This document shows, piece by piece, positions 7,389 through 62,377 of a DNA stretch of 64,000 nucleotides. The notes beneath the pieces are model-generated. The model made no database searches and was not told the origin of the DNA. It saw nothing but the letters and a program-made list of their open reading frames with translations. Source of the DNA: a virus (Duplodnaviria > Heunggongvirae > Uroviricota > Caudoviricetes); the IMG/VR virus record IMGVR_UViG_3300031993_000018, positions 89,614 to 153,613 of that record; one strand, 5' to 3'. The translations under genes were made by a program, and so were the position numbers. The first letter of the stretch is position 1, and every line of letters starts with the position of its first letter.

Positions 7389-8880
7389 GAAAGGCAAATA
7401 TGAGAATATCCTGGATCATGGATATACAGTCTGGCTTGACTTCTTGCTGAATGACCAGCAGAAGGATGTCATCAAGCAGATAAATGACTTCATAACAAGT
7501 CCTACTGAATTTGCTATGACCATATCCGGATGGGCTGGAACAGGTAAGACCACCCTGATGGAAATTGTCAACAAGAGGTACTGGATGAGTCATACTGTTC
7601 ATTTTGCAGCCACTACACACAAGGCAGCAGGTGTACTCAAGGAGAAAGTAGGAAAGAAGGTATTTACTGTCAATTCACTCTTTGGAATCATGATTGAAAC
7701 CGATATGGAGGGTGAAACATATGATGTGTCCAAGAAAGCAAGGAAACTATCTGATGACAAAGTGAAACCAAACTCAATCATCATTATTGATGAGGCATCT
7801 ATGCTTTCCATCCAGAACTATATTGATGTGATTCTCAAGGCAAGAGAAAGAAAGTGCAAGATAATCTTCATAGGTGATTCAGCACAGTTGTCTCCTGTCA
7901 ATGAGGATGACATCTCCATTGTGTTCAGAAATACAGATCACAGGATAGTGGAACTCACCAAAGTGATGAGAACTGATGATGACTCCATCCTGAATGAATC
8001 CACTTCTGTAAGAACAGGTGATGGATTCACATATGAAACTCACATCAATGAAGAGGGAGATGGTGTCAGATATATCTCAAGTAAGGATACAAAAGCAATT
8101 CTTGATGTAATTGACAATCATATTGAAGGTCTGAAAGATGATCCCAATTACTTCAGGGTACTTACATACACCAATGCCAATGTGGAGAAACTGAACAGGA
8201 TGATCCGCAAGAAACTTGGTTATGACGGTCTGAATCCACAACCTGGGGAACCATTGATGGCATACAGTAACTGGGGGTATCAGGGTATGGGTCTATCAGG
8301 TGCTGTATATGTTGTGGTCAATTCGGAGGCATATACAGTCAAGAGTGTTCCTGAAATGTATGATGTCATTGTCCATAAAGAGGATGTAAGCAGAATGATA
8401 ACATACACCAATGAATCAAGATTGGATGACTACAACCTTGAAATCATTGACCTTGAGATTGAAGACTCACTGGGTATTCCTATTGATGTTCCTTTGATTG
8501 ATGTCAAGAACAACTCTCACAACAGGGAGATAGTGGTTGCCCTTGCATATGAGAAAGTCCATCAGTGGAATCTCTACAGGGAAGCGGAAAACAAAAATGA
8601 CAAACTGACCTGTCTTGATAAGATAAATGCCATTGATGACTTCCTGTTTGTCAATGACAATGTATATGACAAGTATGGAACTCTGATCCAGGCCAAGGTG
8701 ATTGACTATGGTTATGCCCATACAATCCACAAGAGTCAGGGAAGTACCTTCAGGCATGTTCTCATCAATGATGATGACATCAACCGCTGTCTTGACAAGA
8801 ATGTAAAAAAGCAGCTCAGGTATGTGGCTGTTACCAGGGCACAGAAATCAGCAAATATTATTACATCACATGTTGTTTAA
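7381..8880 (+). CDS. Dda/RecD-like SF1B DNA helicase
   Basis: Walker [10 protein letters not shown], Walker [11 protein letters not shown], and a C-terminal [13 protein letters not shown] motif typical of RecD/Dda/Pif1-type helicases. Confidence 0.8.
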
Positions 8881-8882
8881 TT

Positions 8883-9494
8883 ATGAGTTATAAGATTAGT
8901 TTATACAGATGTCCAAAGAAGGATGTTGATTCAATAAGGGACATCACAGATGAGGAGTTTGAGGTCAATTATGACAAGATATATGCCACACTTGAAAAGG
9001 AGAAAATCAAGTATGACACCCTTGCAAATATACTTGACACTGGTATGGAGGTTAGGGAAAACCTATGCAGCAGAATCTTCACAAACAAACTGAAGTGTGA
9101 AGAGGATGTATCTTTCTACACAATATCCAAAGACCAGCTCAGGAATATCATAGAAAAAATCAGGCAGCGCACCTTTGAATATGAATGGGGAAACACCATT
9201 GATTATGACAATAAAATAATAGGTGAAAAGATACATGGAGATTTGTCCTGGGAGAAACCTACCTGGGATGAAGCCATCAAACATGTATGTCGTGAATCAA
9301 GGTTTGACGCAAGGATGTGGGCAGACTATCTGGAGAATGAAGACGGTACTAAAAGATACACCAATGTAGATACCAGTGACAATAAGTGGTGGATTACCAA
9401 TGGGTTTGGTTACAAGTACTGCATATTCAACTTTGTGCATATCCTGAAGTGTTTTGACTGGGAAAATGACTATCTTGTCGCAATCGGCGGATAA
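8883..9494 (+). CDS. Hypothetical protein
   Basis: 203 aa ORF. Confidence 0.45.
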   Translation: MSYKISLYRCPKKDVDSIRDITDEEFEVNYDKIYATLEKEKIKYDTLANILDTGMEVRENLCSRIFTNKLKCEEDVSFYTISKDQLRNIIEKIRQRTFEYEWGNTIDYDNKIIGEKIHGDLSWEKPTWDEAIKHVCRESRFDARMWADYLENEDGTKRYTNVDTSDNKWWITNGFGYKYCIFNFVHILKCFDWENDYLVAIGG

Positions 9495-9522
9495 ATTATT
9501 TTTCAATTTACATAAATAACGT

Positions 9523-9963
9523 ATGGGAAAATATAGAATGTACAGCTTGGTGCTGAGGCAACTAAACCCAATTCAAAAAGGTGTTCAATCAGCACACTCA
9601 ATCGTCGAATACGCAAAGAAATTCTACAAATCCACTGAATATATACAGTGGGTTAATGTGGATAAGACCATTATCATACTTGATGGTGGAACATATCCTG
9701 AATTGAAAGAATGTAGGGACACCCTCATCGATTTAGGTGTACCTTATATGGCTTTCTATGAAGAAGATCTTGGTGATGTGATGACTTCAATATCATTCCT
9801 GGTTGAAGACAAGGTCTGGGATTCGAAGTCATATCCTTCTTATGAAGATGAACTTGATGAGAATTCATCTGAATCCGAAAATCCGGTATGGCTCATTATG
9901 ATGGGTGGAAAACGGAATCTTGAATTAAGGAAATTCCTGATGAGTAAAAGACTTTCAGCATAA
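9523..9963 (+). CDS. Hypothetical protein, possibly peptidyl-tRNA hydrolase PTH2-like
   Basis: N-terminal YSLVLRQLNPIQKGVQSAHSIVEY resembles the PTH2 core K..vvR.DL.M..GK.aaQ..HA. Weak, from memory only. Confidence 0.3.
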   Translation: MGKYRMYSLVLRQLNPIQKGVQSAHSIVEYAKKFYKSTEYIQWVNVDKTIIILDGGTYPELKECRDTLIDLGVPYMAFYEEDLGDVMTSISFLVEDKVWDSKSYPSYEDELDENSSESENPVWLIMMGGKRNLELRKFLMSKRLSA

Positions 9964-12183: not shown

Positions 12184-13586
12184 ACATTATGTACATAGGA
12201 TTTAAACATTACAAGACATTTCAGTGGATTGAGGAAAAGACCTCTGATGAGTTACCAATTGTTCCAGACAAGGGAGATGTTGTCTGGTTAAAGGGTCATC
12301 AATACAAGGTCAAGTCTAAACTGTTCAACATCATTGATGGAAAGCATTCATTGATGTTCATATTTGTAAAAGAGGTATGAGTATGTGGGAATTAATATGT
12401 TTAGCATTATTTGTTGGAATTGCTACTCTTCTTGCATTTATAATTATATTTGGTATAGGTTATACTATCTATATTGGTATAGAATATTTCATTCACAGGA
12501 AGAAACTTATGAGGAAGTTAAGAGATGTTGATCTTGAACATTTTGATTGAGATATGATGACAAAGGAATTAGAAGAGTGGTTGAGGTATCACTGGAGAAG
12601 GGATAACCACCCCAAATATCAGAGATATTTTGAAGAGTGGATGGCAAATCTTCTGCCAACACAGATAGAGTATTTCAAGAAACAGATGTACAATGAGAAG
12701 AATGGAATCCTGGGTAAGACAATGACAAATAAGAAATGATATGAATAACAGTATAAAAGTGATAATAAGTCCTCTTGTCGGAACAAAGAATTACAGTATG
12801 CATGAAGGTAAGGAATTGGTTCTACCTTGTGTACCTCAAATTGGATCAGTCATTGAAATTGGCAGTGACAACCTTGAAGTCAAAAGAGTGTTTTATATAT
12901 ATAAAGAAGGTGAATATAAAGTTTATTTAAGTGTAACTGACTGGAATTAATATGACTAAATTTACATTAATCCCAATACACTGTAAGGTCCTCAGGATTT
13001 ATTATTCCAAGATGTGTTATAATGGATACTGTGATAAATCTGTTCTCAAAGATAAGGAATGGGTTGTGGGAAAATACTTTGTTGCTGAACATTCAAAGAC
13101 ACCAGGTCTTAAAGAGGGTGACAGTTTTATAATCAAAGAAATATATACTGATTGAGATATGGATAACAGTACATTAATCACTTTATTTATTTTTGGTGCA
13201 GGATTTCTTTTGGGGTTTTGGATTAGTGACAAGATGTCAAATAACAAAAGAAGAAATTAGTATGAAACTATTGAATGTATTTAAATGGATGTGGTATGAA
13301 CTCGGTATTATGGGAACCCTGATTGATGATTATGGAGATCCCGACGGAGCACAGAAACTCCGTATTGAACTATATAAAAAACAGGATGAACTAAAATGAA
13401 AATACTTTGTGTTATATTTTTGATTTACCTAATTGTAGGAACACTTGCGTTTATAGGTGGATCCATATATGCTATACTAACATATAAAAGAGATAAATCC
13501 AAAAAGAGTAATTATGGTTATCCATATCTGGGATTCAACAATCCCCTTATGGATGGGTTTGAATAATAGAATATAAAAAAGATATA

Positions 13587-14109: not shown

Positions 14110-14823
14110 ATGATTGATGATAAGGATATAGAACAGTTAGTTCAGGATTATATTGGTGATGATGATATTGGGGATGATTTAGGAGATATCCTTGATGGAT
14201 TTGGCAGATACTTGCGTGACAAGATATTATCAAAGGGGGCATATGAAGGAGATGACCTGGAAAGGGCAGCAGAGAAATATGAACACAACAGAGCCTATGA
14301 GAATGAGATGGAGAGGTATGCCAATTACCTTGAAGGTCTTGAAGAAGATGAAACCCCAAGAATGAAAGAACCATCACCAGATACAGAGTATATATTAAAT
14401 GCTGATATGATTGATTCTTTTATAGCTGGTGCCCAATGGATGGAATCAAAGATGATAGGAGATTACAGATGGATGACTCCTCACAAGACCAAGATAATCC
14501 AGAAGTCCTGGTATCTGGAAGGATGGCATGACCACAAATATAACCAGAAACCCCAGTTTGAACCTGGTCCGGACTTGGAACAGAAATACCGACCCTGTCA
14601 TATGACTGGTGATGAAGTACAGGAACTGTGTAACAGGAACTATGAGAATGGTAAAAAGGATAAGGAGGAGGAGATAATGAAAGATGCCATTCATTGTAAA
14701 GTGTTCTGGCATGATGGTCCACTGTTAGATTATACCCAGGAACAACAGGATGATGCTCTTGAAAAGATAGGAGCAGAAGTCGGTGACAAGGTGAAACTTA
14801 TAATTGTTAAAGACAATGAGTGA
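14110..14823 (+). CDS. Hypothetical acidic protein, paralog family A
   Basis: AGAQWMESK block and C-terminal VGDKVKLIIVKDNE; Asp-rich N-terminus. Confidence 0.5.
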   Translation: MIDDKDIEQLVQDYIGDDDIGDDLGDILDGFGRYLRDKILSKGAYEGDDLERAAEKYEHNRAYENEMERYANYLEGLEEDETPRMKEPSPDTEYILNADMIDSFIAGAQWMESKMIGDYRWMTPHKTKIIQKSWYLEGWHDHKYNQKPQFEPGPDLEQKYRPCHMTGDEVQELCNRNYENGKKDKEEEIMKDAIHCKVFWHDGPLLDYTQEQQDDALEKIGAEVGDKVKLIIVKDNE

Positions 14824-15373
14824 TTCCAAATCCCTACATTACCAACTTTGTCTGGAAGGTGCCAAGTGGTTACATAGGAAAAAGAATGACTACAAGAAGT
14901 GCCCAAATAAAGACTGTCACTTGAAGTTCTGCCGGAACTGTGAGACTTACGATTACGTTGCGGTGGAACTCTGTGTATATGGTGCAGAGAACACTGATGT
15001 ATGGGGTTACTCATGTGGAAGTCATACCAGTGCAGTCATTGAAGTAAAGACATCTCATTCCGATTTTCTGGCAGATCAGAAGAAATGGTGGAGAAGTAAG
15101 GAAGCAGAGAATGGTGGGTTCCAGGCTGGACAAAGGAGATGGTATCTATGTCCGGAAGGTGTCATCAAACCTGATGAACTTCCCGAGGGTTGGGGACTTC
15201 TTTACTGGGATGGCAAGAAGGTATATCATGTGGTGAATCCTGTTATGACAGACAGGAAAACATCCAGGGCAGATATGATAATGCTGACATCTATATTGAG
15301 GCGAGAGAATTTCCCCAAGAAGATTTACAACTACAGATACACTAATCCAAATTTCCAAAATGATTTGGAATAA
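14804..15373 (+). CDS. Hypothetical protein, possible PD-(D/E)xK nuclease fold
   Basis: An ordered VAVEL ... TDVWGY ... AVIEVKTS pattern resembles the E / D / ExK motif series. Confidence 0.3.
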   Translation: MLKTMSDSKSLHYQLCLEGAKWLHRKKNDYKKCPNKDCHLKFCRNCETYDYVAVELCVYGAENTDVWGYSCGSHTSAVIEVKTSHSDFLADQKKWWRSKEAENGGFQAGQRRWYLCPEGVIKPDELPEGWGLLYWDGKKVYHVVNPVMTDRKTSRADMIMLTSILRRENFPKKIYNYRYTNPNFQNDLE

Positions 15374-15506
15374 CAAGAAAAAATCATTATCTTTGTAATG
15401 GAGAAATAATGTTTAAGAATATGTGGATAGTATTATTACTGTTGATTGGATTGATAGCTTGCCTTTGGAAAGGTGAAGGTAGTAAGTAATTTTAAAAAAT
15501 ATAATT

Positions 15507-15722
15507 ATGGCTTGGTATTGGATTGTAGCAATTATCATTGGCTACTTTATTTTTGGTAGCACCCTTACAGCTCTTGCAGTAAGATTTGACATTGTTGAAG
15601 ACAATGAGGAAGCTGGCTTCTGTATTGTGTTCTGGCCAGTTTACACACCGGTGAGATTTATATTCTGGTTGTGCGCAACTATCTATTGTGAAATTGCATT
15701 CCCAAAAAACAAAAGAAAATGA
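15507..15722 (+). CDS. Small membrane protein (MAWY family paralog 1)
   Basis: MAWYWIVAIIIGYFIFG; two TM segments; paralog of 16813..17004. Confidence 0.4.
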   Translation: MAWYWIVAIIIGYFIFGSTLTALAVRFDIVEDNEEAGFCIVFWPVYTPVRFIFWLCATIYCEIAFPKNKRK

Positions 15723-15952
15723 AAAGAATTGATTTTAGAGTTCTGTTGAAGTCAATAGGACTGTTTATTCTGGTGATTGGAGCAATCATAGGATTTTGCT
15801 TTTTTACAACTTTTTATCCTGTGGCGGGGTGTTGTATTTTCATTATATGTGTATCAGTAGTTTGTATCTGGTGTATATATGATATAGTACTTGATTCTGA
15901 ACGTCGTATAAAAAACCACACCAAGGATCCTGGATCAATGTAAATTAAAGTT

Positions 15953-18039: not shown

Positions 18040-18933
18040 ATGACAAAGAAAGCGGAATATATCGGTGATAACCATCCTCAGGTCTATGGATTTGAGGTTG
18101 GTCATATCTATTTATACAGAGACTTTGGTAGAGGGGTTGAAGTCTATTACTCCAAAGAGGGTGGTACTTCCCTGGCAATGGGTTACAATATGTTCAATGC
18201 CTGCTTCAGGGGTGTGGAAGATAAAGTGTTCAAGAAGGAGGGTAGACTCCAGCACATCACTTTCACAGGTATTGATTGGAAGACTGACTTGAATGAACTG
18301 TCAGAAATCCAGAAGCAGTATCCCTATGTGGAATGGGGAGTACTTGTATCAAAAAATTGGAAGACCAATGGTAACAGGTATTTCAACCCCTCATTCATAG
18401 AAGCACTTGACAGTAACCTCAACCTATCTGCACATATGTGTGGAAGGATTGCAAGGGAAGCAGTCAGAGGAAACCTGAATCCATTCCTGGATTGGGTAAA
18501 TGGATATGGTTACATCTTCAAGAGATGTCAACTCAACATATCAGGAAGTGAGACCAACCCAGAGAAGTTTGAATACAAGGGTGATTTGTCAGATTACTTT
18601 GATGAAGTCATACTTCAACAGAAGGGAGTCAATAACTGTGACCTGTTTATGAAGAGCAAGGGAAACAGACATGTGTCCATACTCCTGGATGCATCCGGTG
18701 GAAATGGAATCAACACTGACATTGAACTCCTCAATGTCAGGTCAAAGGTTGGTTATGCTGGAGGTATCAATGCCGACAATGTGGCAGAGAAACTAACATA
18801 TCTTGAAGAGAACTGCAAGACTCCATATTGGATTGATATGGAAGCAGGTGTAAGAACCAATGACTGGTTTGACACAGAGAAGGTGAGAAAGGTTCTGGAG
18901 ATTTGTGATGGTATAATCAATAAAAAGAAATGA
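18040..18933 (+). CDS. Hypothetical protein, possibly a (beta/alpha)8 barrel with C-terminal GGI..DN phosphate-binding motif
   Basis: 297 aa ORF. The C-terminal YAGGINADNVAEKL resembles the terminal phosphate-binding loop of ribulose-phosphate-binding barrels such as ThiE/TrpF. Weak. Confidence 0.45.
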   Translation: MTKKAEYIGDNHPQVYGFEVGHIYLYRDFGRGVEVYYSKEGGTSLAMGYNMFNACFRGVEDKVFKKEGRLQHITFTGIDWKTDLNELSEIQKQYPYVEWGVLVSKNWKTNGNRYFNPSFIEALDSNLNLSAHMCGRIAREAVRGNLNPFLDWVNGYGYIFKRCQLNISGSETNPEKFEYKGDLSDYFDEVILQQKGVNNCDLFMKSKGNRHVSILLDASGGNGINTDIELLNVRSKVGYAGGINADNVAEKLTYLEENCKTPYWIDMEAGVRTNDWFDTEKVRKVLEICDGIINKKK

Positions 18934-19396: not shown

Positions 19397-19908
19397 AAGC
19401 ATTTTACTTTGGTGGTCAGTTCAGGTTCAGATACAAGGACTGTAATCCTGATTTACTGGCAAAGGATTACCGGTCACTCCTACTTGGAGACAAGAAGGAT
19501 ATATGGATTAACAGACCTGAATGGGGATATGTGGAAATCAATGATAGTGTATTATATAATGGTCCATTCTACTTCTATGACCAGATTGATTCAGAGACTG
19601 TTGTCAAGGTTGAATCAGAAAGTATAAGTGGTTCAACTGACTGTGTGTTTGTGTTGAGTAATGATGATGCACCTGGAACAGTCACAGAGATAATCCAGGC
19701 AACAATGTTAAAGAAGAATGTGTACATATTCTTTGAGAAGAAAGATTTGCCAAAGGAAGAGGTGGATACCAAATATCCTTCAAACCTTTGGTATGTAATA
19801 ACATTTGCCTGTATGAATAATAACCCCAATGTCAAATACTGTATGGGATTTGATACGTATGATGATGCAGTTAAAGCATGTGTTAACTATTTCAAAGGAG
19901 TATTATGA
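19393..19908 (+). CDS. Nucleoside 2-deoxyribosyltransferase-like protein
   Basis: N-terminal FYFGGQF resembles Lactobacillus NDT (IYFGAGWF). Acidic block DDAPGTVTEIIQA sits at the position of the catalytic-Glu motif DxGxxxExG. Confidence 0.4.
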   Translation: MKAFYFGGQFRFRYKDCNPDLLAKDYRSLLLGDKKDIWINRPEWGYVEINDSVLYNGPFYFYDQIDSETVVKVESESISGSTDCVFVLSNDDAPGTVTEIIQATMLKKNVYIFFEKKDLPKEEVDTKYPSNLWYVITFACMNNNPNVKYCMGFDTYDDAVKACVNYFKGVL

Positions 19909-20459
19909 TTGAGTTTATTTGTGCAATACTTGGTCTGGCACAGGGAGTTCTGGCCTGGCTTAACAAGAGAATCAACTGGCTTGTATATGCAGTGATGATG
20001 GTGTTTCTAATCATATTCTCTGCTGCCAACAATCTATGGGCAGATGTTTTTCAGAACTCAATATATGCAGCAATATGTCTTTATTCATACTTCATAATGT
20101 GGAACAAAGGTTCTGATTTTGACCACATATCAAAGATGAGTAATGAAAATAGATATTGGACTGTTGCGATAGTATTGTTGGCAACACTCCTGCTTGGTGT
20201 GTTGTTAAAGGGTACCAATGACCCCTTACCTGTGATTGATGCATTTACCACAGTTACTACATTTGGAGCCCTGATACTGATGTCACGACACAAGATAGAA
20301 TGTTGGATTATGTGGTTAATCAATGACATTGCTTACATTGTCCAGTACTATATGTTACCGGACCAGGCATGGTATTTGATATTCCTGTATATAATATGGA
20401 CAGGATTTGCCATTGGTTCATTGATAACTTGGAGAAAGCAAATGATAACTAATTCTTAA
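19905..20459 (+). CDS. pnuC: PnuC-family nicotinamide riboside transporter
   Basis: 184 aa multi-TM protein. N-terminal ICAILGLAQGVLAWLNKRINWLVYAVMMVF, Trp-rich helices and an overall layout resembling PnuC. Confidence 0.6.
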   Translation: MIEFICAILGLAQGVLAWLNKRINWLVYAVMMVFLIIFSAANNLWADVFQNSIYAAICLYSYFIMWNKGSDFDHISKMSNENRYWTVAIVLLATLLLGVLLKGTNDPLPVIDAFTTVTTFGALILMSRHKIECWIMWLINDIAYIVQYYMLPDQAWYLIFLYIIWTGFAIGSLITWRKQMITNS

Positions 20460-23041: not shown

Positions 23042-23647
23042 ATGCTGACAGTAGATGAAATGAAGTCCAATTCTGAACTCTACACATTGAGGGAAAGTCT
23101 TGGAAGACACACCCAACCGGTGATGTTGGATTACAGAATAGGTGATGCCCTTGTGAGTGATGACCTCACACACAGGGGAAGAAAGTATGATATGGATGTT
23201 TATCTTGAGAAATACAAGACAAACCTTCAGCGTCCTTATGTATGGACATATCCACAGCAGAATGCTTTCATCCAGTCTGTCCTTTATGACAAGGTTGTAT
23301 CTCCATTTGTTGTAATCATGCACTCTTTGAGTAATGATGGTCTTGGTGACAAGATTGTATATGTCATTGATGGCAAGCAGAGGCTCACTACTGTCCATAA
23401 GTTTATGCACAATGAGTTTCCTGTTGAGGTTGGTGGTGAGAAATATTACTACAAGGATTTTGATGATGACTTGAAGACCTATTTCAACAGAAACCTTGAC
23501 CGCTTTGTGGCAATTGTGTATTACAGTTACCCTTATGAACCGGTCACTGATGATGAGAAGATCCAGATCTTCAACTTCTACAACTTCACAGGTACTCCCC
23601 AGGCAGAGGAACACAAGATTAAGTTACAGAACCTTTTGAAGAAATAA
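23042..23647 (+). CDS. Hypothetical protein
   Basis: 201 aa ORF. Confidence 0.45.
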   Translation: MLTVDEMKSNSELYTLRESLGRHTQPVMLDYRIGDALVSDDLTHRGRKYDMDVYLEKYKTNLQRPYVWTYPQQNAFIQSVLYDKVVSPFVVIMHSLSNDGLGDKIVYVIDGKQRLTTVHKFMHNEFPVEVGGEKYYYKDFDDDLKTYFNRNLDRFVAIVYYSYPYEPVTDDEKIQIFNFYNFTGTPQAEEHKIKLQNLLKK

Positions 23648-24021: not shown

Positions 24022-24247
24022 GTTCCTAACATTATGATGTACATACTTGCAGGAAGAAGTTATCAATTATATGGCATCTTCTCCACAAAGGAGAAACTCA
24101 ATGAGGCCATCGCAGTCGTAAGGAAACATGACCCTTACACACATCTCTATTGGCAGGAGGTAGAGGTTGACAACTTTGACACAACCATTGCCTCATTCTT
24201 TACAATGCATCCGGAAAAACTTATAGAAATAGAAAAAGACACAGATT

Positions 24248-24973
24248 ATGAAATTTCTGATACAGACAGTAAATAAACAGATTACATATGACTTCATTTT
24301 TGAGTTGACCATATGTAAGGAATACTTTGATTGGATTGGAAGGGATTTCAAACTCAAGAAACATGAAGGTCTGAACTTTGATGATATAAAGAACCCGGAC
24401 CAGTATGTCCCTGTTGGTTCTGTTGAGTTTGTATCAGAGTATTTGAGGAAGTTTTACCCCCAGGCAGAGAAAGCACTCATACCTATCAATGTTCCAGAAC
24501 AGTTGTTCCCATTTGCCGGCAGAACCATTGCCAACATAACCAAACCGGAGGATATGAATGGGTTTGATTGTCTTGTGTACAGAAAGTCTTTGGATACAAT
24601 AAAGGATCCCAACAATGGATGGTGGGGATTTCCTGAATATGAATGGTGTAAGGGTTACCAGGTTTCCACTCCAATTGATAACATTATTTCTGAATGGAGA
24701 GTATTTGTATTCAATGATGTAATTGTGGATGCAAAAAACTACAGGGGTGACTTTTTCGTATGTCCGGATGAAGAAACAGTTTCCAATATGGTGAAAGCAT
24801 ATAAGAATTCACCCAGAGCATATACGCTTGATGTAGCAGTCACAAGTGAAGGTAAAACTGTAGTGATTGAGTGTCACCGGTTCTTTTCATGTGGTCTGTA
24901 TGGATTTTGTGAGCATGATAAATATCCTGTAATGCTTTCACAGGAATGGTTTGAAATGAAAAATATGAGATAA
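24248..24973 (+). CDS. ATP-grasp fold enzyme
   Basis: EWRVFVFNDVIVDAK and LDVAVTSEGKTVVIECH resemble ATP-grasp C-terminal strands (RimK-like E.RV.V.G.VV and D....G...V.E.N). Confidence 0.4.
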   Translation: MKFLIQTVNKQITYDFIFELTICKEYFDWIGRDFKLKKHEGLNFDDIKNPDQYVPVGSVEFVSEYLRKFYPQAEKALIPINVPEQLFPFAGRTIANITKPEDMNGFDCLVYRKSLDTIKDPNNGWWGFPEYEWCKGYQVSTPIDNIISEWRVFVFNDVIVDAKNYRGDFFVCPDEETVSNMVKAYKNSPRAYTLDVAVTSEGKTVVIECHRFFSCGLYGFCEHDKYPVMLSQEWFEMKNMR

Positions 24974-25580
24974 TTATGAACACTAAAAAAAGAAATGTAT
25001 TCTTTGATTTGTTTTACAAGAAATACAAATCCATTGATAAAATGAACTACATCAAAAATGTTATGGACTCTTGTGAGACAAAAGTACAATTGGATTCAGC
25101 GTATTCATGGGGAATTGAAATCATTTGGAAAACATGTAGTGCAATGAGAGAAATACTTGATAATGAATATGGTAGTATCTTTGCATTTCCTATTGAAGAT
25201 AAAATAATGGATATGTGTAAAGAAATATCAGATGAAATTACCAATCATTATAATAACATACTAAAAAGAAAGATATAAAAGAATGATATGATAGGTATTT
25301 TTATTTTCCCGGCAAAACCAAACAAGGATTACCTGTTCTACAAAGAACCCAGAAAAGTTCTTGAAATGAGTGATGATGAAATCATATCATCAAAAAATTC
25401 ATCAAGGGGTATTTTCTATAACATACATTATGACAATGAATGGGAAGGACTCAGTGATGCAGAAATTGTTGATAAGTGGAATGAAAAAGCGATAAACCTC
25501 CAAATTCAGATTGGTAACAGAAAATCCGGACTTGGTTATACATCAGTAGATAAGACTAAATTTATTAGAATAATAAGGAA

Positions 25581-26258
25581 ATGAAACACTATGACAGTAT
25601 TCCCAGACTCCAGGATGATGGAACACTGAAAGGAGAGATGGTCGCCGGGTACAACAAACTTGACGGTCAGAACTTCTGTGTCACATATAATTGTAGAAAG
25701 AAAACCTGGGGACCTTATGGATCCAGGACTGTCACTGTTGATGAGAACTCTGAACAGTTTGGGGACACGGTTAGATTCTTCAACAACTCCGGTTACAAGG
25801 AGATACTTGGAAATATCATCAAGGAGTATTCAGGTAAGGGAGATGTGTTCAATGGTGTTGAAGAAGTCACATTCTTCTTTGAGTGGTATGGGTGGAACTC
25901 ATTCGCTGGCAAACACAAGGAAGGTGACAAGATGCACCTGGCACTCATTGATGTGTTCCTGAAGAAGAGAGGTTATATGGAACCCAAATCATATGAGATG
26001 TGTTTCAGAAATTGCGGAATTGAACTTCCTGATCTCATATATTCCGGACCACTCAATGCAGACATTATAGAAAAGGTTCAGAACAATGACTGGACAGACC
26101 CGGATTGTTGGAATTCCAAAGTACATGAGGGTGTTGTCTTCAAAAGAACAACACTCCTGAAAGGACAGAGGAGACCATCAGTCAAGGTGAAGACCAAATG
26201 GTGGTTGGACACTCTCCACTCACTTTATACAGAAGAGGAATGTAAGAAACTTGAGTGA
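25581..26258 (+). CDS. ATP-dependent RNA/DNA ligase-like nucleotidyltransferase (small)
   Basis: Motif I KLDGQN (KxDGxN), motif IV-like EGVVFK and downstream lysines in RPSVKVKTKWW. Confidence 0.5.
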   Translation: MKHYDSIPRLQDDGTLKGEMVAGYNKLDGQNFCVTYNCRKKTWGPYGSRTVTVDENSEQFGDTVRFFNNSGYKEILGNIIKEYSGKGDVFNGVEEVTFFFEWYGWNSFAGKHKEGDKMHLALIDVFLKKRGYMEPKSYEMCFRNCGIELPDLIYSGPLNADIIEKVQNNDWTDPDCWNSKVHEGVVFKRTTLLKGQRRPSVKVKTKWWLDTLHSLYTEEECKKLE

Positions 26259-27111
26259 TATGGAAGGATACAGTATAAATCCATTAGACTATCTTAACCA
26301 GGCACTTAATTATGCACATCGTTGGAAACTTGATGTCAATCTTGAAAATCCGACCACAATACAGGACAAACTGTTCTGGTTGAATTTCTATGACCAGGAC
26401 ATCAGAAAGTCCAGATGTGCAGATAAACTGTTAGTCAGGGAGTATGCAAAAGAAAAACTTGGTTTTGACATCAACATACCAATATTAAAGGTGTATGACA
26501 GTGTTGATGACATAAACCTGGATGAACTCCCAGATAAGTTTGTCATAAAGTGTAATCATGGAAGTTCAATGAACATTGTTGTCAAAGACAAGAGTTCATT
26601 TGACTTTGAAAAAGCAAAGGACAAACTCAGGAAATGGATGAGTATTGATTATGCACTATATAATCATTATGAGTTCCATTACCATGACATACAACACAAG
26701 ATTCTGATTGAGGAATACAAGGAAGATCTCAAGACCAATGAACTCAGGGATTACAAGTTCAGCTGTTTCAATGGTGTTCCCAAAGTTATGTGTGCAATCA
26801 CAAACCTGTTCAAACACAATGAGACAACCAACTATTATGATATGGATTTCAATCCATTGACTGATATGTCCCTGATATATCATCCTGCAAACTACAATGT
26901 CCAGATTGATAAACCCAAAGGGTTTGAAAAGATGATAGAGTATGCCACAAAACTCTCCCAGGACTTTAAGTATGTCAGGGTAGATTTCTTCAGTATCAAT
27001 GGTGATGTGTATCTGAGTGAGATGACATTCACACCACATGCCATAATCTGGTTGAGATTCAATAACCCCAAATATGACCTTGAACTGGGTAATATGCTTA
27101 ATATAAAGTAA
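26251..27111 (+). CDS. TupA-like ATP-grasp protein
   Basis: IQDKLFWLNFYD, ADKLLVREYAKEKLG, FVIKCNHGSS, DYKFSCFNGVPK and FTPH blocks match what I recall of the TupA-like ATP-grasp family. Confidence 0.55.
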   Translation: MSDMEGYSINPLDYLNQALNYAHRWKLDVNLENPTTIQDKLFWLNFYDQDIRKSRCADKLLVREYAKEKLGFDINIPILKVYDSVDDINLDELPDKFVIKCNHGSSMNIVVKDKSSFDFEKAKDKLRKWMSIDYALYNHYEFHYHDIQHKILIEEYKEDLKTNELRDYKFSCFNGVPKVMCAITNLFKHNETTNYYDMDFNPLTDMSLIYHPANYNVQIDKPKGFEKMIEYATKLSQDFKYVRVDFFSINGDVYLSEMTFTPHAIIWLRFNNPKYDLELGNMLNIK

Positions 27112-27860
27112 TATGAATACAAGTTTCATTTATAAGGTGATATCTGAATCAGAAAGGTGGCAGGTAAGACGCAAGAGAAAGATCGAGAGGATGAAATTTC
27201 TGATGAAAGTTCTTGAAGACAGAAACCTTAACCTCCCTGAAAGATTTTATGGTATGCTGGCAAGGTGGGAGTCAGAATATAGAAGAGAATGTGAGGAATA
27301 TCAGCAACTACTTAACATAACCAAGAATGAAAAGAAAGAAGAAAGAATACAGTAACATCTGTGATATGAATGGGGAACTCATCCCATATGGTGTCCCTAT
27401 TGACTTCACATGGTGGGCATACTATGGGACAGAAGTTGAACTCCACCTGGTTGCGAAGATACGAAAGCGAAAATCCGGTGACATCTTTGAGTTCATAAAG
27501 GATGAACATGGAAGAGATTGTTTCTTCACTCACAGACTGACATCACTCAATTGGGAACCGGCAGATTTGGAAATATTAAATGAAAATGAGTTATGAACAA
27601 CATCTTTAATTATATCTTTAATTTTGGACCGGTAATTGTCTCCCTCATCCTCCTTATCTGGATGAGATGTTGTTGTGTATTCACAGAGAACATCAAGTTC
27701 CCGACAAGAGGACATATTGTACTGATTACACTGTTGTCAGCAATCCCCATTATAGGAATTATAACAGTGGCGGGTATGATTGCATTCTATATTGGATTCA
27801 GAGTGACAGGTGATTTACGTCTTAAAAGTAATAGATTTACTAAATTTTGGTTTGACATAG

Positions 27861-28388
27861 ATGAATGATTTTAAGAAAATAGTTTTCCTGGATATAGATG
27901 GTGTATTGGCATCCATCCAATTCTTGTGTGATCATCCCAAGTCATCAGGAATTGATCCGGAAAAGTGTAAACTCCTCAACACCCTTTCTGAAATAGGTGC
28001 TGAAATTGTCATATCCTCTTCCTGGGGACACGACAATGGCAGAACTGAAAAGACATTGAGACAATGTGGGTTGACCCTTCCAATCATAGGTTACACCCAA
28101 CATTTTTCCCAGGACTGGATATGTAGGGGTAATGAAATTGAGAAGTGGTTGACAGAGATGTATGGTGGTATGGGTACCAAGTTTGGTTACGATTGCGATA
28201 CGGGTGAACCATACTACAGGGAACACTTTAGTGATAATGATGTTGATTATGAGTATGTTATCTTTGATGATGACACTGATTTCCTGCTTGGACAAAAAGA
28301 CAACTTCATCAAAATAGATGAAAAGACAGGTCTGACAGAAGAGGACATCAACAAAGCAATTAAGATACTTACAAGAAGTGGCGAATAA
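27861..28388 (+). CDS. HAD-superfamily phosphatase (HAD_SAK / polynucleotide-phosphatase-like)
   Basis: Motif I VFLDIDGVL followed by a short ISSSW block, as in the HAD domains of Swiss-army-knife RNA repair proteins and PNKP phosphatases. Confidence 0.5.
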   Translation: MNDFKKIVFLDIDGVLASIQFLCDHPKSSGIDPEKCKLLNTLSEIGAEIVISSSWGHDNGRTEKTLRQCGLTLPIIGYTQHFSQDWICRGNEIEKWLTEMYGGMGTKFGYDCDTGEPYYREHFSDNDVDYEYVIFDDDTDFLLGQKDNFIKIDEKTGLTEEDINKAIKILTRSGE

Positions 28389-28401
28389 ATTTCGCCATTT
28401 T

Positions 28402-28433
28402 TTTTTTGTTATTTCAAAAAAATATATTATCTT
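28402..28433 (+). promoter_or_regulatory. Sigma-AB type promoter (TTTG, then 19 nt, then TATCTTTG)
   Basis: TTTGttatttcaaaaaaatatatTATCTTTGtaatag, preceded by hairpin terminator GGCGAAtaaatTTCGCC. Confidence 0.55.
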
Positions 28434-35968: not shown

Positions 35969-37288
35969 ATGAAACTAACATTAGAGAATATTACAATCAA
36001 AGACCACAAGATTTATGACCCGGAAGGAAACTTCAGGGGAGAAATCTTGTATGAGTACATTCGTGGTTCTCATCTGTATTCAACCAATGTGGAGACATCA
36101 GATGAAGACCAGGGAGGTATCTACATTATGCCTAACAGCACCATATTGGGTCTTGGTCTTGACTATCAGAATGAGATAAAGGATAAGAGTAATGACAAGT
36201 GCATCTGGGAGTTGGGAAGATTCCTGGAACTTGCCCTGTCTTCAAACCCAACTGTCCTGGAGGCACTCTTTGTTCCTGGTGATAAGGTCATCTATGAACA
36301 TCCTGTCATCAAGGAGATCCGTTCACACCGTGATGAGTTTATCACCAAGAAGTGTTTTGCACCATTTGGAGGTTATGCTTCAAGTCAGATAAAGAAGGCT
36401 CAGGGTCAGAACAAGAAGATCCACTGGGATATTGCCCAGATGGTAAGGAAGACTCCTATGGACTTCTGTTATACCTTGAAGAACCAGGGTAGTCAGCCTA
36501 TGCAGGACTGGTTGGATGAAAGAGGACTTGATCAGAGAAACTGTGGTCTGGTCAATATTCCCAATATGCCTGATATGTTCGGTGTGTATTATGACTGGGG
36601 TCAGCACATCAGACTTGCCGGTATCACCAAGGAGTATTTCACCAATAAGGAGAATTACTACAAGGATAAGTTTATCAAGACTATGGACATGTATCTTGGA
36701 AATGAATATATCCTCCATGAGGATGGAAACCTTGAGGATGAACTTGAATATATCTGGGATCATCACTCTGAACCTCATGGTGGTTACTGTGGAATCATCT
36801 CACCCAATGAGGATTCCAACACAGTAAGGTTCTCTTCTGTTGTCAAGGGTGAGAAACCCATCTGTTATATGTCTTACAATGCCAATGCATATATATCACA
36901 TTGTAAGGAGTATAGGGAGTATGAGGACTGGAAGGAACACAGAAATCCAGCAAGGTATGAATCCAATATGGAGGGAGAGAAGTCAGGCAATGCAGATATG
37001 AAATATGACTGCAAGAATATGATGCACTGCTTCAGGTTGATGGCAATGGCAAAGGAGATTGCAGAAGGAAAGGGTGTGATCCTGGATCGCGCTGGTATTG
37101 ACAGGGAGTTTCTCCTGGATGTTAGAAACCGTAAGTATGGTTATTCTGAACTCCAGAAGAAGATGCTTGACCTGAAGGATGAGATGGATGCTGCCATTGA
37201 GAAATCTACCATCAAGGATGAGATTGATCCCCAAATGGTCAATGACCTCCTCCTGGAAGCAAGAAAACATTTTAATTCAAAAGATTAA
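35969..37288 (+). CDS. Pol-beta superfamily nucleotidyltransferase (GSHLYST...SDED motif)
   Basis: Near the N-terminus, IRGSHLYSTNVETSDEDQGG fits the GS...(S/T)D.D nucleotidyltransferase active site. The ~440 aa protein probably carries a helical substrate-binding extension. Confidence 0.5.
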   Translation: MKLTLENITIKDHKIYDPEGNFRGEILYEYIRGSHLYSTNVETSDEDQGGIYIMPNSTILGLGLDYQNEIKDKSNDKCIWELGRFLELALSSNPTVLEALFVPGDKVIYEHPVIKEIRSHRDEFITKKCFAPFGGYASSQIKKAQGQNKKIHWDIAQMVRKTPMDFCYTLKNQGSQPMQDWLDERGLDQRNCGLVNIPNMPDMFGVYYDWGQHIRLAGITKEYFTNKENYYKDKFIKTMDMYLGNEYILHEDGNLEDELEYIWDHHSEPHGGYCGIISPNEDSNTVRFSSVVKGEKPICYMSYNANAYISHCKEYREYEDWKEHRNPARYESNMEGEKSGNADMKYDCKNMMHCFRLMAMAKEIAEGKGVILDRAGIDREFLLDVRNRKYGYSELQKKMLDLKDEMDAAIEKSTIKDEIDPQMVNDLLLEARKHFNSKD

Positions 37289-38266: not shown

Positions 38267-39112
38267 ATGTATTTCAAAAACCTAAAAGAAAAGTGCGAAT
38301 ATTACCGTTCGCTTACTGATTATAAACTGATGTCAAACTCTTATGTCCTGGTGATGGTGGATGGTCACTGTTTCAGCAAGATGATCAAGAATAAGTTTGA
38401 CAAACCATTTGATGATGAGTTCATCAATATGATGAATGAGACTGCAAAGTATCTGTGTGAACAGGTACAGGGAGTTAAGTTTGCATACACACAGTCTGAT
38501 GAGATTTCACTTCTCATCACAGACTTTGACACACCAGTAACCGATGCATACTTTAGTTTCAGACTCTGTAAGATGCAGTCACTCATTGCTGCACTGGCAA
38601 CTGCCAAGTTCAACCAGTTATATGCCATCCATAACATTGGTAAGGAAGTGAGTGGTGGCAGCAACAAGATTGAACTTAAGAAGACTATTCCACTCTGTAC
38701 ATTTGACTGTAAGGTATGGACTGTTCCAAATGCAAATGACGCCTATGCCTGGTTCCTCTACAGACAGACTGACTGTATCAAGAACTCAAAGGCACAGACA
38801 GCCCAGACATATCTTCCACACAAACAGTTGGTGGGTCTGACAGCAGATGATATGATTGCCAAACTCAAGGATGAGCAGAACATTGACTGGTATGAGTTTG
38901 TCAATGGTAAGAAGTATGGAAGACTCATCAGGAAAGTGGAGACTCCTATGGAGAAAGACCTTTCCAATGGACTACACATTGAATACATAAGGAATGTATG
39001 GACACCTGTTGAGATAACAGACTTGAGAGAGGATGGGTCACAAGTGAGAGATCTGATTCCTGAACTGTTCAGACCTGGTGTTAATATAAAAGAAGAAATC
39101 ACAGAAGAATGA
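38267..39112 (+). CDS. Thg1-like protein (tRNA-His guanylyltransferase family 3'-5' nucleotidyltransferase)
   Basis: YVLVMVDGHCFSKMIKNKFDKPFDDEFINMMNETAKYL and FAYTQSDEISLLI parallel the Thg1/TLP N-terminal catalytic blocks (R.DGR.FH.F...KP.D....M...A...AYG.SDE.S..L). Confidence 0.65.
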   Translation: MYFKNLKEKCEYYRSLTDYKLMSNSYVLVMVDGHCFSKMIKNKFDKPFDDEFINMMNETAKYLCEQVQGVKFAYTQSDEISLLITDFDTPVTDAYFSFRLCKMQSLIAALATAKFNQLYAIHNIGKEVSGGSNKIELKKTIPLCTFDCKVWTVPNANDAYAWFLYRQTDCIKNSKAQTAQTYLPHKQLVGLTADDMIAKLKDEQNIDWYEFVNGKKYGRLIRKVETPMEKDLSNGLHIEYIRNVWTPVEITDLREDGSQVRDLIPELFRPGVNIKEEITEE

Positions 39113-39499: not shown

Positions 39500-40219
39500 A
39501 TGGATACTACCAATACCAATTATTATTATATGATGAGAGATGAGATAGACAGTATTGACAATCCTGAAATCAGGAGGTTTGCCAACACACTGTTGAACAG
39601 AGTCCCCGATTATTTTTTCAAGGTACCCGCATCTTCATCAGGTAAGTATCACCCAAAGAATGACCTGGGTGAGGGTGGATTGGTCAGACACTCCATCAGT
39701 GTAAAGAGAATGCTTGTACATCTCCTTGAACTGGACTGTTATAGTTTCTCTGATGATGAGAAGGATCTCCTGATTGTTGCGGCTCTGTTCCATGACTGTA
39801 TGAAGTCAGGAACACAGGAGGAGTATAAGAAAAACAACAGAACCAAATTCCTCCATCCTGTCCTGGCTGCCAACTTCATTATCACCACATCTGTGATAGA
39901 TGGGTTCAAATATGATTGGGCATTGTATATTGCTGATGCTGTGATTTCACATATGGGTCAGTGGAACACCAACAAGAGTGAGGATGGTGAACTCCCTGTC
40001 CCTGTTAATCCGGCACAAAGAATCCTCCATCTTGCAGACTATCTTGTCTCAAGAAAGGACATCAATATGGTCCTCAGGGAAGATGATGAGATTATTGACA
40101 ATGAAGTAATTGTAACCCAGGATGACAACAAGGATGAACCTGGAGATGTTCCTGAACACAAGGAGAATGGTGAGGACACCAAGACAGCACCAGGAACAAC
40201 TATGGAAATGTCAGACTGA
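39500..40219 (+). CDS. HD-domain phosphohydrolase
   Basis: H...HS...AALFHDCMK contains His-Asp metal ligands, with additional downstream His (ISHMGQW). A bidirectional terminator follows. Confidence 0.6.
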   Translation: MDTTNTNYYYMMRDEIDSIDNPEIRRFANTLLNRVPDYFFKVPASSSGKYHPKNDLGEGGLVRHSISVKRMLVHLLELDCYSFSDDEKDLLIVAALFHDCMKSGTQEEYKKNNRTKFLHPVLAANFIITTSVIDGFKYDWALYIADAVISHMGQWNTNKSEDGELPVPVNPAQRILHLADYLVSRKDINMVLREDDEIIDNEVIVTQDDNKDEPGDVPEHKENGEDTKTAPGTTMEMSD

Positions 40220-44894: not shown

Positions 44895-45197
44895 ATGACA
44901 ACTAAATCATTCAAAGAATTACTCAACAAATCCTTTGAGATAGGATTTAATGATGAGAAAAGAATCATTTGGTTTATCAATGATTGCCCCTGGCTCAATA
45001 TTGAGTGGAAAGAAGGAAATGGGTTTATCTTTGATTATAAAAAGAATACATTTGTTGCTCATATTACCATTGACAGTGTTCCAAGACTTGTGGATGCTCT
45101 AAATCTTTGTGGACTGTCAGTGTTGGCAAAACAGGTAACATATAACTTTATAGACTCCGGTAGATGTCCGGAAATAAAAGAAGACATTGTAAAATGA
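44895..45197 (+). CDS. Hypothetical protein
   Basis: 100 aa ORF. Confidence 0.4.
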   Translation: MTTKSFKELLNKSFEIGFNDEKRIIWFINDCPWLNIEWKEGNGFIFDYKKNTFVAHITIDSVPRLVDALNLCGLSVLAKQVTYNFIDSGRCPEIKEDIVK

Positions 45198-45691
45198 TAA
45201 GAAGAATAGTAGTTGACGGTAATGACGGAACAGGAAAGACTGCAACCATTAACAAGTTGAAGTTCCTATTCCCTGGTATTGAAATACAGGACAGAGGTCT
45301 GTTCTCTGAAGCGACTCTCAATGATGAGTTGTTCAAGGAGTATGAGGAAGAGAGTAAAAGGAGGGAAAATAACCCGAATTTATTTCTAAACTTTGGTATG
45401 AATATTGATAACCAACAGGTGAACAAAAACATCATGAATTTCCTGTTGAGTCTCAGTGAAATCCCAGAATGTGATACACTCTTTATCATATGTGTTGCAG
45501 ACCCGGAGGTATGTCAACAGAGAATTGCTGCCAGAGGTGACTCCATTGAGGAGGAATATCACACAATGGAAGACTTGAAAAAGTTTGACTACCGTTTCAG
45601 AATACTGTGCAGACTTGCCGATTACAAACAGAACATAATGTTGGTTGACACAACAAACAGGACAAACCCGGATACTTGTGATCTGGTATAA
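45194..45691 (+). CDS. P-loop nucleoside/nucleotide kinase (thymidylate-kinase / NRK-uridine-kinase-like)
   Basis: RIVVDGNDGTGKTATINKL (Walker A) followed by IQDRGLF. ATG 45194 is preferred over 45164, which overlaps the upstream gene. Confidence 0.5.
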   Translation: MIRRIVVDGNDGTGKTATINKLKFLFPGIEIQDRGLFSEATLNDELFKEYEEESKRRENNPNLFLNFGMNIDNQQVNKNIMNFLLSLSEIPECDTLFIICVADPEVCQQRIAARGDSIEEEYHTMEDLKKFDYRFRILCRLADYKQNIMLVDTTNRTNPDTCDLV

Positions 45692-46477: not shown

Positions 46478-46482
46478 AGTTA

Positions 46483-61693: not shown

Positions 61694-62377
61694 ATGAAGA
61701 ATATAGAAGACATAAACACCAAATATCCAAGGACATATCATCTGCCTTGGTCACCCGGAGCCACTTCTGATGACAAGAAGTTGTCCTCAGACTGGTTTGA
61801 TGCAGATGAATGGAAAGGAAAGGAGATTGTGATCACTGAGAAGCTTGACGGTGAGAACACCGCCTTCTGGAATGGTGATGTCTTCAGCAGAAGTCACTCG
61901 GTTCCCACCAGGTCACCCTGGTCAAGAAACCTTTGGGACAAAGATGGACTCCTGTGGGTGATAAAAGACAAGATCTCCCCGGAAGAGATTGTCTATGGTG
62001 AGAACCTTTATGGTGAACACAGCATACACTATGACAGACTTCCGGCGTATTTCTTCGCCTTCGCCTGCCGCAGGGAAAATCAGTGGTGGAGTTGGGATGA
62101 TGTTGTTCTGATGGCGGATATTCTGAATGTACCGACAGTTCCTGTCCTGTGGAGAGGAAGGTTGGAGTCAGAGTCTGAACTGAAGGAGATGATCTCCAGG
62201 TTTATGTCCCAACCATCGGCATTCGGTGATACAAAGGAAGGAGTGGTGATAAGAAAGGTCGAAGGATTTGACAACAAGGACTTCTCCAAGAATGTCGCCA
62301 AGTATGTGAGGGAAAATCATGTCCAGACTGACCAACACTGGACAAAGAACTGGAAAAGAGCAAAGTTAATAGTTTGA
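61694..62377 (+). CDS. ATP-dependent RNA ligase-like nucleotidyltransferase
   Basis: N-terminal KYPRTYHL, motif I KLDGEN, motif IV EGVVIRK, plus downstream Lys residues. Confidence 0.55.
   Translation: MKNIEDINTKYPRTYHLPWSPGATSDDKKLSSDWFDADEWKGKEIVITEKLDGENTAFWNGDVFSRSHSVPTRSPWSRNLWDKDGLLWVIKDKISPEEIVYGENLYGEHSIHYDRLPAYFFAFACRRENQWWSWDDVVLMADILNVPTVPVLWRGRLESESELKEMISRFMSQPSAFGDTKEGVVIRKVEGFDNKDFSKNVAKYVRENHVQTDQHWTKNWKRAKLIV

Follow-up and report, generated by a model that had tools for sequence, protein, structure and literature searches.

An RNA ligase, a phosphatase and two ATP-grasp enzymes in a relative of the Lak megaphages: a likely mosaic of accessory genes

We use a combination of profile searches, structure prediction and neighbourhood comparison to study a compact run of genes at positions 24248-28388 of a 64,000-nucleotide stretch of viral DNA (the window in what follows; positions 89,614 to 153,613 of IMG/VR record IMGVR_UViG_3300031993_000018, Caudoviricetes). 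The run encodes four enzymes: an R2K-clade ATP-grasp amidoligase (hereafter R2K), a minimal ATP-dependent RNA ligase, a TupA-like ATP-grasp amidoligase (TupA) and a stand-alone HAD_SAK_2 phosphatase (HAD). An initial annotation, made from the letters of the sequence, had described the four as a single enzymatic island. All four open reading frames (ORFs) sit at the coordinates it gave, on the + strand, and its four domain calls (ATP-grasp, RNA ligase, TupA-like and HAD_SAK) are borne out by scores above the curated Pfam cut-offs, the specific TupA and HAD_SAK labels included. The loci with which we compare the window are denoted by L numbers.

Layout and families of the four enzymes

The run opens with the R2K gene (24248..24973; here and below, features of the window written with two dots are on the + strand), which encodes 241 aa and matches Pfam R2K_2 and R2K_3. 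Two small ORFs follow, p100 (24976..25278, 100 aa, with no significant family match) and p98 (25288..25584, 98 aa), the stop of the latter overlapping the start of the ligase gene by 4 nt. The ligase (25581..26258, 225 aa; PF09414, PHROG 548) consists of a nucleotidyltransferase domain only. Directly behind it lies the TupA gene (26260..27111, 283 aa, PF14305), for which we use the ATG at 26260, as in the metagenome's own gene call; the mechanical ORF begins at TTG 26251. Three further small ORFs, p80 (27113..27355, 80 aa, basic, with no family match), p89 (27327..27596, 89 aa) and p91 (27593..27868, 91 aa, hydrophobic in translation and probably a membrane protein), lead to the HAD gene (27861..28388, 175 aa; PF18143, PHROG 1818), whose most constant neighbour is p89. 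The description of the ligase as flanked by two ATP-grasp genes is therefore exact for TupA, the immediate neighbour, and looser for R2K, which is set apart by the two small ORFs of 100 and 98 aa; likewise, the ~750 bp said to separate TupA from HAD are there, and they are occupied by the ORFs of 80, 89 and 91 aa.

From 24034 to 28388 the spacing between consecutive genes runs from -29 to +9 nt. A terminator-like hairpin of 13 pairs followed by a T-run (28373..28403) sits on the HAD stop codon, where it probably ends a transcription unit. No comparable hairpin-type terminator lies on the + strand between 21500 and 28373. Because of this tight packing and the single terminator-like site after HAD, the genes from 24034 to 28388, and with them the whole run from R2K to HAD, are probably co-transcribed. 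A scan for sigma-70-type promoters, with a model unsuited to Bacteroidota, gave 35 sites against 31.1 ± 5.5 in shuffled sequence, which is no excess.

Among deposited phages, the only relatives of the window at the nucleotide level are the ~540-kb Lak megaphages of Prevotella, and the ligase is 59-60% identical in protein sequence to the ligase of the Prevotella Lak phages. By these matches the source of the window is a relative of the Lak megaphages, which fits the earlier guess of a Bacteroidota phage. An identical ligase gene, with the same neighbours, is found on a 121-kb contig from JGI metagenome 3300028887. Lak phages are reported to recode TAG, and a Lak-type code 15 was considered as something that might fuse or extend ORFs here. 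We rejected it: TAG is the stop of 4 of the 169 mechanical ORFs in the window, TAG trinucleotides are about one third as frequent as TAA, and only one TAG is flanked on both sides by long open frames, this one lying outside any called gene. Since reading through TAG barely alters the ORFs, and neither extends nor merges genes, the standard code is adequate for the window.

The ligase matches Pfam RNA_ligase PF09414 at 1e-9 (39.2 bits, curated cut-off 27) and PHROG 548 'RNA ligase' at 7e-15. Across 77 aligned members of the family, motif I, K26-x-D28-G29 (KxDG), does not vary, and neither do motifs III (E101), IV (E183-G184) and V (K202-x-K204). Close homologues are 224-227 aa long, and an exhaustive search finds 426 clusters (50% identity) at E<=0.001; among 150 listed of the 426 representatives, lengths are mostly ~195-230 aa, the shorter ones reflecting partial cover of the query. 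Because the homologues are equally small, 225 aa is a property of the family and not the result of truncation, and the KxDG ligase of 225 aa recognised in the initial annotation stands as described.

The AlphaFold2 (AF2) model of the ligase has a predicted local distance difference test (pLDDT) score of 94.7, and Foldseek aligns it best with T4 Rnl2, T. brucei REL1, Naegleria Rnl5 and T4 Rnl1, in each case with the adenylyltransferase domain. The top 30 matches are all RNA ligases or archaeal Rnl3-type enzymes (Rnl2, REL1, Rnl5, Rnl1, Rnl3, Trl1), and bona fide DNA ligases appear in the list only at E>1e-3. At the level of sequence, the ligase profile gives only weak matches to PDB chains, namely Rnl3 and Rnl2. 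According to the model and Foldseek, the nucleotidyltransferase domain fills all 225 residues, and neither the C-terminal domain of Rnl2 nor the N-terminal OB domain of Rnl5 is present. Since the accessory domain is missing and full-length family members run to ~195-230 aa, the ligase is, as judged from alignment and model, a member of a separate minimal clade with the nucleotidyltransferase domain alone, and not an Rnl2 or Rnl5 proper. The clade is abundant, and it could provide a compact enzyme of practical use.

The small ORF p98 was considered as a dedicated partner of the ligase. It lies directly 5' of the ligase gene in the window, L004, L019-21 and L031-33. In L007, L039, L040 and L045, however, it is paired instead with a GmrSD_N gene, so it is not an obligate partner, and we reject this role for it. 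The window has a GmrSD gene of its own upstream of the run (23042-23647), which encodes a 201-aa protein made up of the GmrSD N-terminal (DUF262) domain alone, without the nuclease half.

The phosphatase matches PF18143 HAD_SAK_2 at 1.9e-19 (70.8 bits, cut-off 27.5) and PHROG 1818 at 3.4e-28. Its FLDIDGV...SSW signature is conserved. The residues of HAD motifs I-IV (the nucleophile pair D11/D13, S53, R89/K95 and D136-D137) show no variation across 7 sequences, homologues from Vibrio phages among them. The initial annotation had assigned this signature to the phosphatase domains of polynucleotide kinase-phosphatases; the signature is real, and the assignment is imprecise in that the 'Swiss-army-knife' HAD is separate from the Pnk-fused HAD (PMC7824862). 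No solved or characterised relative was found by sequence or profile search. We predict that the enzyme acts on RNA 3'-phosphate ends.

R2K matches Pfam R2K_2 at 8.5e-20 (71.6 bits, cut-off 26.2) and R2K_3 at 2e-18 (67.6 bits, cut-off 26.3). Across 64 homologues, R92, K113, K119, E149-W-R151, D195, E208 and H210 are invariant, and we equate R92, K113 and K119 with the arginine and two lysines that name the clade by their position, without alignment to the published figure. The last metal-binding motif is an invariant E208-C-H210 in the same 64 homologues, where the usual form is E-x-N and the R2K.3 form is ExGD; the N of the ExN motif is at times another polar residue in the R2K clade (PMC4431377). 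The AF2 model (pLDDT 95.4) has the ATP-grasp fold together with a pre-ATP-grasp domain, and it finds its best PDB folds in ArgX/LysX, DcsG, Ddl, MdnC/PsnB and RimK, RiPP macrocyclases included, with E from 2e-8 to 5e-6 for ArgX/LysX, Ddl, RimK and MdnC. CDC123 is not within the top 50 structural matches. The Foldseek check proposed in the initial annotation thus returns RNA-ligase folds for the ligase and folds of ATP-grasp enzymes that ligate amino acids or peptides for R2K. Fusions of R2K or ligase domains that might hint at another function were looked for as well and gave nothing to build on: longer R2K forms are without a recognisable extra domain, and a 1870-aa match is a repeat artefact.

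TupA matches Pfam ATPgrasp_TupA PF14305 at 9.4e-49 over profile positions 2-240 of 241. Scans of the four enzymes against NCBIfam returned no names, save one sub-threshold HAD-IIIA match, and sequence searches of PDB chains with R2K, TupA and HAD gave nothing useful.

Recurrence of the gene order in relatives

The neighbourhood search suggested in the initial annotation does find the same four genes together elsewhere, in close relatives only, so the refutation it had named, a complete lack of co-occurrence, does not apply. The order R2K, small ORFs, ligase, TupA, small ORFs, HAD is shared by the window, L019-22 (ligase 90% identical) and L031-33 (TupA 77%), and TupA is confined to these variants of the block. 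R2K, ligase and HAD are kept without TupA in L007, L039 and L092; R2K and the p89-HAD pair are kept without ligase and TupA in L026, L042 and L045. The full four-gene order is limited to close relatives and decays stepwise with distance.

The small ORFs are distributed in the same patchwork fashion. Homologues of p100 are in the same block in L007, L039 and L031-33 and absent from L019-22; those of p80 lie 3' of the ligase in L004, L007, L039 and L092; those of p89 lie just 5' of HAD in L007, L019, L026, L039, L042 and L045; and p91 has homologues in L019 and L039. The slot between R2K and HAD in L026 holds a 202-aa protein (5733-6341) with neither a Pfam match nor a homologue in the window.

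Beyond this clade each enzyme is found in other company. TupA-like proteins are encoded at 54 other IMG/VR loci (29-51% identity), many of them on contigs of 200-670 kb, and at none of these 54 phage loci does a member of the ligase family, an R2K or a HAD lie within 6 kb. Among 59 metagenomic R2K loci, a hidden Markov model of the ligase is positive in three, all of the window's clade, HAD is present in six and TupA in none. Distant R2K genes adjoin helicases in a 237-kb phage, and the R2K genes of Bacillus phage G and cyanophage S-CRM01 have no RNA-repair neighbour. Scanning IMG/VR with the single R2K sequence gave no matches, and scanning with the R2K alignment returned only the L007 contig again. 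The ligase, for its part, is mobile. A ligase 88% identical to that of the window is found in L017 in a wholly different setting, where the anti-CBASS gene Acb3, Tpt1/KptA, SmpB and a TROVE-like DUF2828 gene (together at 3604-4425, 8830-9573, 12559-13017 and 14201-15793), along with NUDIX, replace R2K, TupA and HAD.

These distributions bear directly on the idea that the four genes form one pathway, in which two ATP-grasps, a ligase and a phosphatase would work on a single substrate one after the other, for instance by placing an amino acid or peptide onto a nucleic-acid or nucleotide-sugar intermediate. Such a pathway would explain the shared strand, the near contiguity and the one terminator, and why the order is kept in three sub-lineages (the window, L019-22 and L031-33). 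It would not explain why TupA, or ligase and TupA together, can be missing from otherwise similar blocks, why the L017 ligase has entirely other neighbours, why partners are found in 0/54 other TupA loci and the ligase in only 3/59 R2K loci, or why every family has its own recurrent context elsewhere. The neighbourhood data already strongly disfavour the four-enzyme pathway, and we consider it very unlikely. The single island built on 'ATP-grasp plus ligase', as implied in the initial annotation, is accordingly not supported: co-occurrence decays stepwise, no other TupA locus has the partners, and R2K is found with no ligase at all both in a conjugative element and in unrelated phages.

The reading that we favour, with moderate confidence, is that the stretch is a mosaic drawn from the accessory counter-defence region of a Lak-like megaphage, in which the ligase and HAD would serve RNA repair, R2K and TupA would be independent passengers, and there would be no four-enzyme pathway. 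Tight packing and co-transcription are, in a megaphage, poor evidence of a shared pathway.

Probable RNA repair, a possible role in NAD salvage, and the proposed passengers

The link between ligase and HAD is where this mosaic holds together, and it is independent of the window's lineage. All 15 of 15 Lak genomes have both a ligase and a HAD_SAK_2 homologue, with R2K and TupA absent, and in L179, a distant phage, only one nucleotide lies between a minimal ligase and a HAD that are 28% and 37% identical to those of the window. Around the ligase, neighbours change from locus to locus and stay repair-related, so that the gene, mobile as it is, appears repeatedly among RNA-end-processing genes. 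In Lak-like contigs it adjoins RlaP (L005, L006), Thg1 (L005, L008, L013) or a second ligase (L010, L013), and in the Lak phages proper it adjoins a P-loop kinase and an NMNAT-like gene. A count over 8 such loci, covering 91 ORFs no farther than 4.5 kb from the ligase, gives two each of Thg1, RlaP, RNA_ligase and HD, and a single Tpt1, SmpB, CCA-adding-type polymerase (PolyA_pol) and RNase_T. HAD_SAK_2 relatives are present at 79 IMG/VR loci, and the 146 ORFs around them in 24 diverse phage loci include the cyclic-phosphate-processing cREC_REC (three times), RNA_lig_T4_1 (Rnl1; twice), RNA_ligase PF09414 (twice), Metallophos (calcineurin-like phosphoesterases; three times) and SmpB.

The window itself has further genes of this kind. 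RlaP, the RNA-ligase-associated Pol-beta nucleotidyltransferase, is at 35969..37288 (PF10127, 5e-19); in relatives it stands directly beside a ligase homologue (L005, L006) or 3-5 kb from HAD (L019, L032-33). A Thg1-like 3'-5' nucleotidyltransferase (38267..39112; PF04446, 2.9e-26) may serve to repair tRNA 5' ends, and an HD-domain phosphohydrolase, possibly an end-healing enzyme, is at 39500..40219 (PF01966, 1e-9). A second, very divergent RNA ligase of 227 aa is at 61694..62377. It matches PF09414 far more strongly than the first ligase does (1.7e-30 against 1e-9), and BLASTP gave no alignment between the two. Elsewhere the window encodes nucleotide-metabolism enzymes, a sigma factor and helicases, and the Pfam census adds one protein of the SPFH/Band-7 kind and one WYL_2 (Sm-like) protein; in 2016 Burroughs and Aravind reportedly proposed SPFH modules as scaffolds in RNA-repair systems.

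From family memberships, catalytic motifs, folds and neighbourhood patterns, which are what we observe, we infer substrates, an order of reactions and a biological role as follows. Host ribonucleases would leave 2',3'-cyclic or 3'-phosphate ends together with 5'-OH ends. HAD, with D11 as the predicted nucleophile and an aspartyl-phosphate intermediate, would remove the 3'-phosphate, possibly helped by the HD protein. Some kinase, with none identified in the window, would phosphorylate the 5' end, and lost nucleotides would be restored by RlaP and the Thg1-like enzyme. The ligase, a stand-alone adenylyltransferase domain of the Rnl2/Rnl5 type, would then adenylylate itself on K26, transfer the AMP to the 5'-phosphate end of the RNA and seal it to the 3'-OH. 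Together, HAD, ligase, RlaP, the Thg1-like enzyme, the HD protein and the second ligase may repair tRNAs or other RNAs that anticodon nucleases and comparable defences of the host have cut.

Several observations weigh against this account and the mosaic of which it is part. The 64-kb window yields no convincing candidate for a polynucleotide 5'-kinase. The sole P-loop kinase (45164-45691) has weak dTMP-kinase/AAA_33 matches, and because its neighbours are NMNAT-like and NUDIX genes it looks like a NAD-salvage gene; as a candidate for the missing polynucleotide kinase we reject it as unsupported. In the ligase, the absence of the accessory substrate-binding domain of Rnl2 or Rnl5 leaves both its substrate and its full competence in ligation uncertain. 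No reported activity was found for the four proteins or their close homologues. The gaps of a few nucleotides, the single terminator and the probable co-transcription are compatible with joint function of the whole run, and the distance from R2K to HAD is kept in about nine loci of the clade, for which shared ancestry is the simplest account. Finally, NAD genes recur nearby. NAPRTase or NAD synthase is found near the ligase in Lak-like loci, and in XacN1 a NAD synthase comes two genes after a minimal ligase; KVP40.0161, the HAD_SAK_2 homologue of Vibrio phage KVP40 (L035 3974-4516), lies directly 5' of natV, the NMNAT-Nudix gene in the NAD pathway of that phage.

The last of these raises the question of whether HAD has its place in nucleotide or NAD+ metabolism instead, possibly along with the ligase-like protein, HAD being a nucleotide or NMN phosphatase that works with phage NAD-salvage genes. 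The window does contain a set of that kind, comprising a PnuC NMN/NR transporter, the P-loop kinase (45164-45691), two cytidylyltransferase/NMNAT-like genes and a NUDIX gene, the other four at 19905-20459, 45995-46477, 46443-46895 and 59885-60343, and in the window these genes are interleaved with the RNA-repair genes. The KVP40 homologue beside natV and the NAPRTase and NAD synthase genes near ligases point the same way, as do the NT5C nucleotidases that occur twice among HAD neighbours in the 24-locus census; and that no solved or characterised relative of the HAD family was found leaves room for such a substrate. Set against this are the four RNA ligases and three cREC domains among the HAD neighbours of diverse phages, the HAD that abuts a minimal ligase in L179, and the ligase itself, which carries the full motif set of a polynucleotide ligase and whose nearest folds are RNA ligases. 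NAD-salvage and RNA-repair genes may merely share counter-defence regions, so that the recurrence of NAD genes near ligase and HAD may reflect a clustering of counter-defence functions, but it does keep a nucleotide-phosphatase role of HAD in play. On balance we regard a role in NAD metabolism as unlikely, and for the pair of ligase and HAD we retain RNA repair.

The two remaining enzymes are, in the mosaic that we favour, passengers with functions of their own. The TupA-like proteins at the other loci have as neighbours TOD1_MUCI70 (11 times), GT2 (10 times), GT92 (7 times), DUF4422 (3 times) and sugar-nucleotide epimerases/dehydratases, and because of this glycosyltransferase context elsewhere we propose that TupA probably amidates a sugar acid in a glycan. 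Within the 64-kb window, no glycosyltransferase or glycan-related gene is among the matches listed (25 of 31 families).

For R2K, the published prediction is a ligase of peptides or amino acids that modifies proteins in phage-host conflict (PMC4431377); a search for further work on R2K.2 gave, by title and abstract, only unrelated papers. The fold matches and the presence of a homologue in the leading region of a conjugative element fit this prediction for the window's enzyme, which probably uses ATP to ligate amino acids or peptides and would thereby modify a host or phage protein. The homologue in question, 51% identical, is encoded in L029 (5001-5780; JGI 3300014043), in a conjugative element that also carries a resolvase, YAcAr, a TraG-like coupling protein and an anti-restriction protein of the ArdC type; this setting suggests a counter-defence role for R2K during DNA entry. 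A PRAI-like (PF00697) gene of ~297 aa, at 18040-18933 in the window, is found 0-5 kb from R2K, on either side, in at least 10 loci (the window, L026, L041, L049-52, L056, L083-84 and L087), also beside R2K genes that share no more than 44-53% identity with the window's copy; the proximity could be shared synteny or a real association.

A closer tie between R2K and the repair enzymes can be imagined in a three-part translation-rescue module, in which R2K would modify or restore a translation protein, the ligase and HAD would mend cut tRNA, and only TupA would be a passenger. CDC123, a eukaryotic relative of R2K, acts on eIF2-gamma, a homologue of EF-Tu (PMC4431377), which gives the clade a link to translation factors, and the best folds of R2K, LysX/ArgX and RimK, belong to enzymes that ligate amino acids onto proteins. 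The arrangement R2K...p89-HAD is kept in about nine loci of the clade, with the ligase in the slot between them in six, the three genes are probably co-transcribed, and the R2K beside ArdC in the conjugative element fits counter-defence. The weight of the shared arrangement is reduced, however, by the fact that the R2K-HAD loci are all syntenic relatives and may go back to a single event; for the same reason the R2K-ligase-HAD loci amount to roughly one evolutionary observation. R2K loci at <=52% identity have neither HAD nor ligase nearby, the 15 Lak genomes have ligase and HAD and no R2K, and R2K was not seen fused to any RNA-repair domain. We give this module a small chance. A bolder version, with a slightly smaller chance still, is that the ~200-230-aa ligases form a distinct class of RNA ligase without accessory domain, which might use small partners (p98, p80) and which in this clade would be wired together with R2K and the SAK phosphatase, mending both RNA and protein of the translation machinery.

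If the mosaic is the right description, the locus is one more case of the shuffled RNA-repair toolkits of huge gut phages, here beside NAD salvage and, in relatives, the anti-CBASS Acb3. It is then useful for annotation and brings no conceptual advance. The heal-and-seal toolkit as such has already been described for jumbo phages.

Comparison with known systems

In phage T4, Pnkp together with Rnl1 and Rnl2 heals and seals tRNA cut by the PrrC anticodon nuclease, as established by the Shuman and Kaufmann laboratories. The T4 phosphatase forms one protein with the 5'-kinase and is of another HAD family, and the C-terminal domain of T4 Rnl2 is needed for complete nick sealing. The window resembles this system in having a covalent nucleotidyltransferase ligase and a DxDG-type HAD, and in the predicted purpose of countering host RNA cleavage. 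It differs in that its HAD stands alone and its ligase is without the C-terminal domain of Rnl2. The likeness of the ligase to Rnl2, REL1 and NgrRnl (Rnl5) is one of adenylyltransferase fold (Foldseek E 1e-9 to 1e-6, TM 0.6-0.67 on the query) and of motifs I, III, IV and V, whereas identity to these enzymes is 12-17% and the ligase falls in a large clade apart, made up of small proteins, the 426 clusters described above.

For TupA, the known counterparts are the TupA-like enzymes of teichuronopeptide, capsule and O-antigen loci. The full-profile match is what it has in common with them, as is the position of its huge-phage relatives among glycosyltransferases and sugar-nucleotide enzymes. In the window, unlike in those loci, TupA comes directly after an RNA ligase, and no glycan-related neighbour is among the matches listed.

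R2K agrees with the published description of its clade (PMC4431377) in its R2K_2 and R2K_3 matches, in the arginine and two lysines, in its sporadic presence in caudate phages and mobile elements, and in the predicted protein-modifying conflict role; it departs from it in reading E-x-H where E-x-N is usual. The contexts reported for R2K are GNAT, ADP-ribosylglycohydrolase and R2K.3, and adjacency to an RNA ligase is not among them (PMC4431377).

The nearest comparison is with the RNA-repair systems of jumbo phages, in which ATP-dependent ligases occur with Pnk-fused or stand-alone 'Swiss-army-knife' HAD phosphatases, cREC domains and RlaP (Iyer et al. 2021, PMC7824862). That survey, which builds on Burroughs & Aravind 2016, includes Lak-B8. 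The combination of genes had not been recognised in the initial annotation; the pairing of ligase and HAD_SAK within it is known from the jumbo-phage syntax, Lak-B8 included. Relative to those sets, the window stands out in a ligase that is nucleotidyltransferase-only and matches solved ligases weakly in sequence, in that no polynucleotide kinase was found in it, and in the two ATP-grasp amidoligases interleaved with the repair genes. With those sets it shares the PF09414 ligase, the stand-alone HAD_SAK_2, RlaP and HD, in its relatives also Tpt1/KptA, and the same shuffled, modular layout (PMC7824862).

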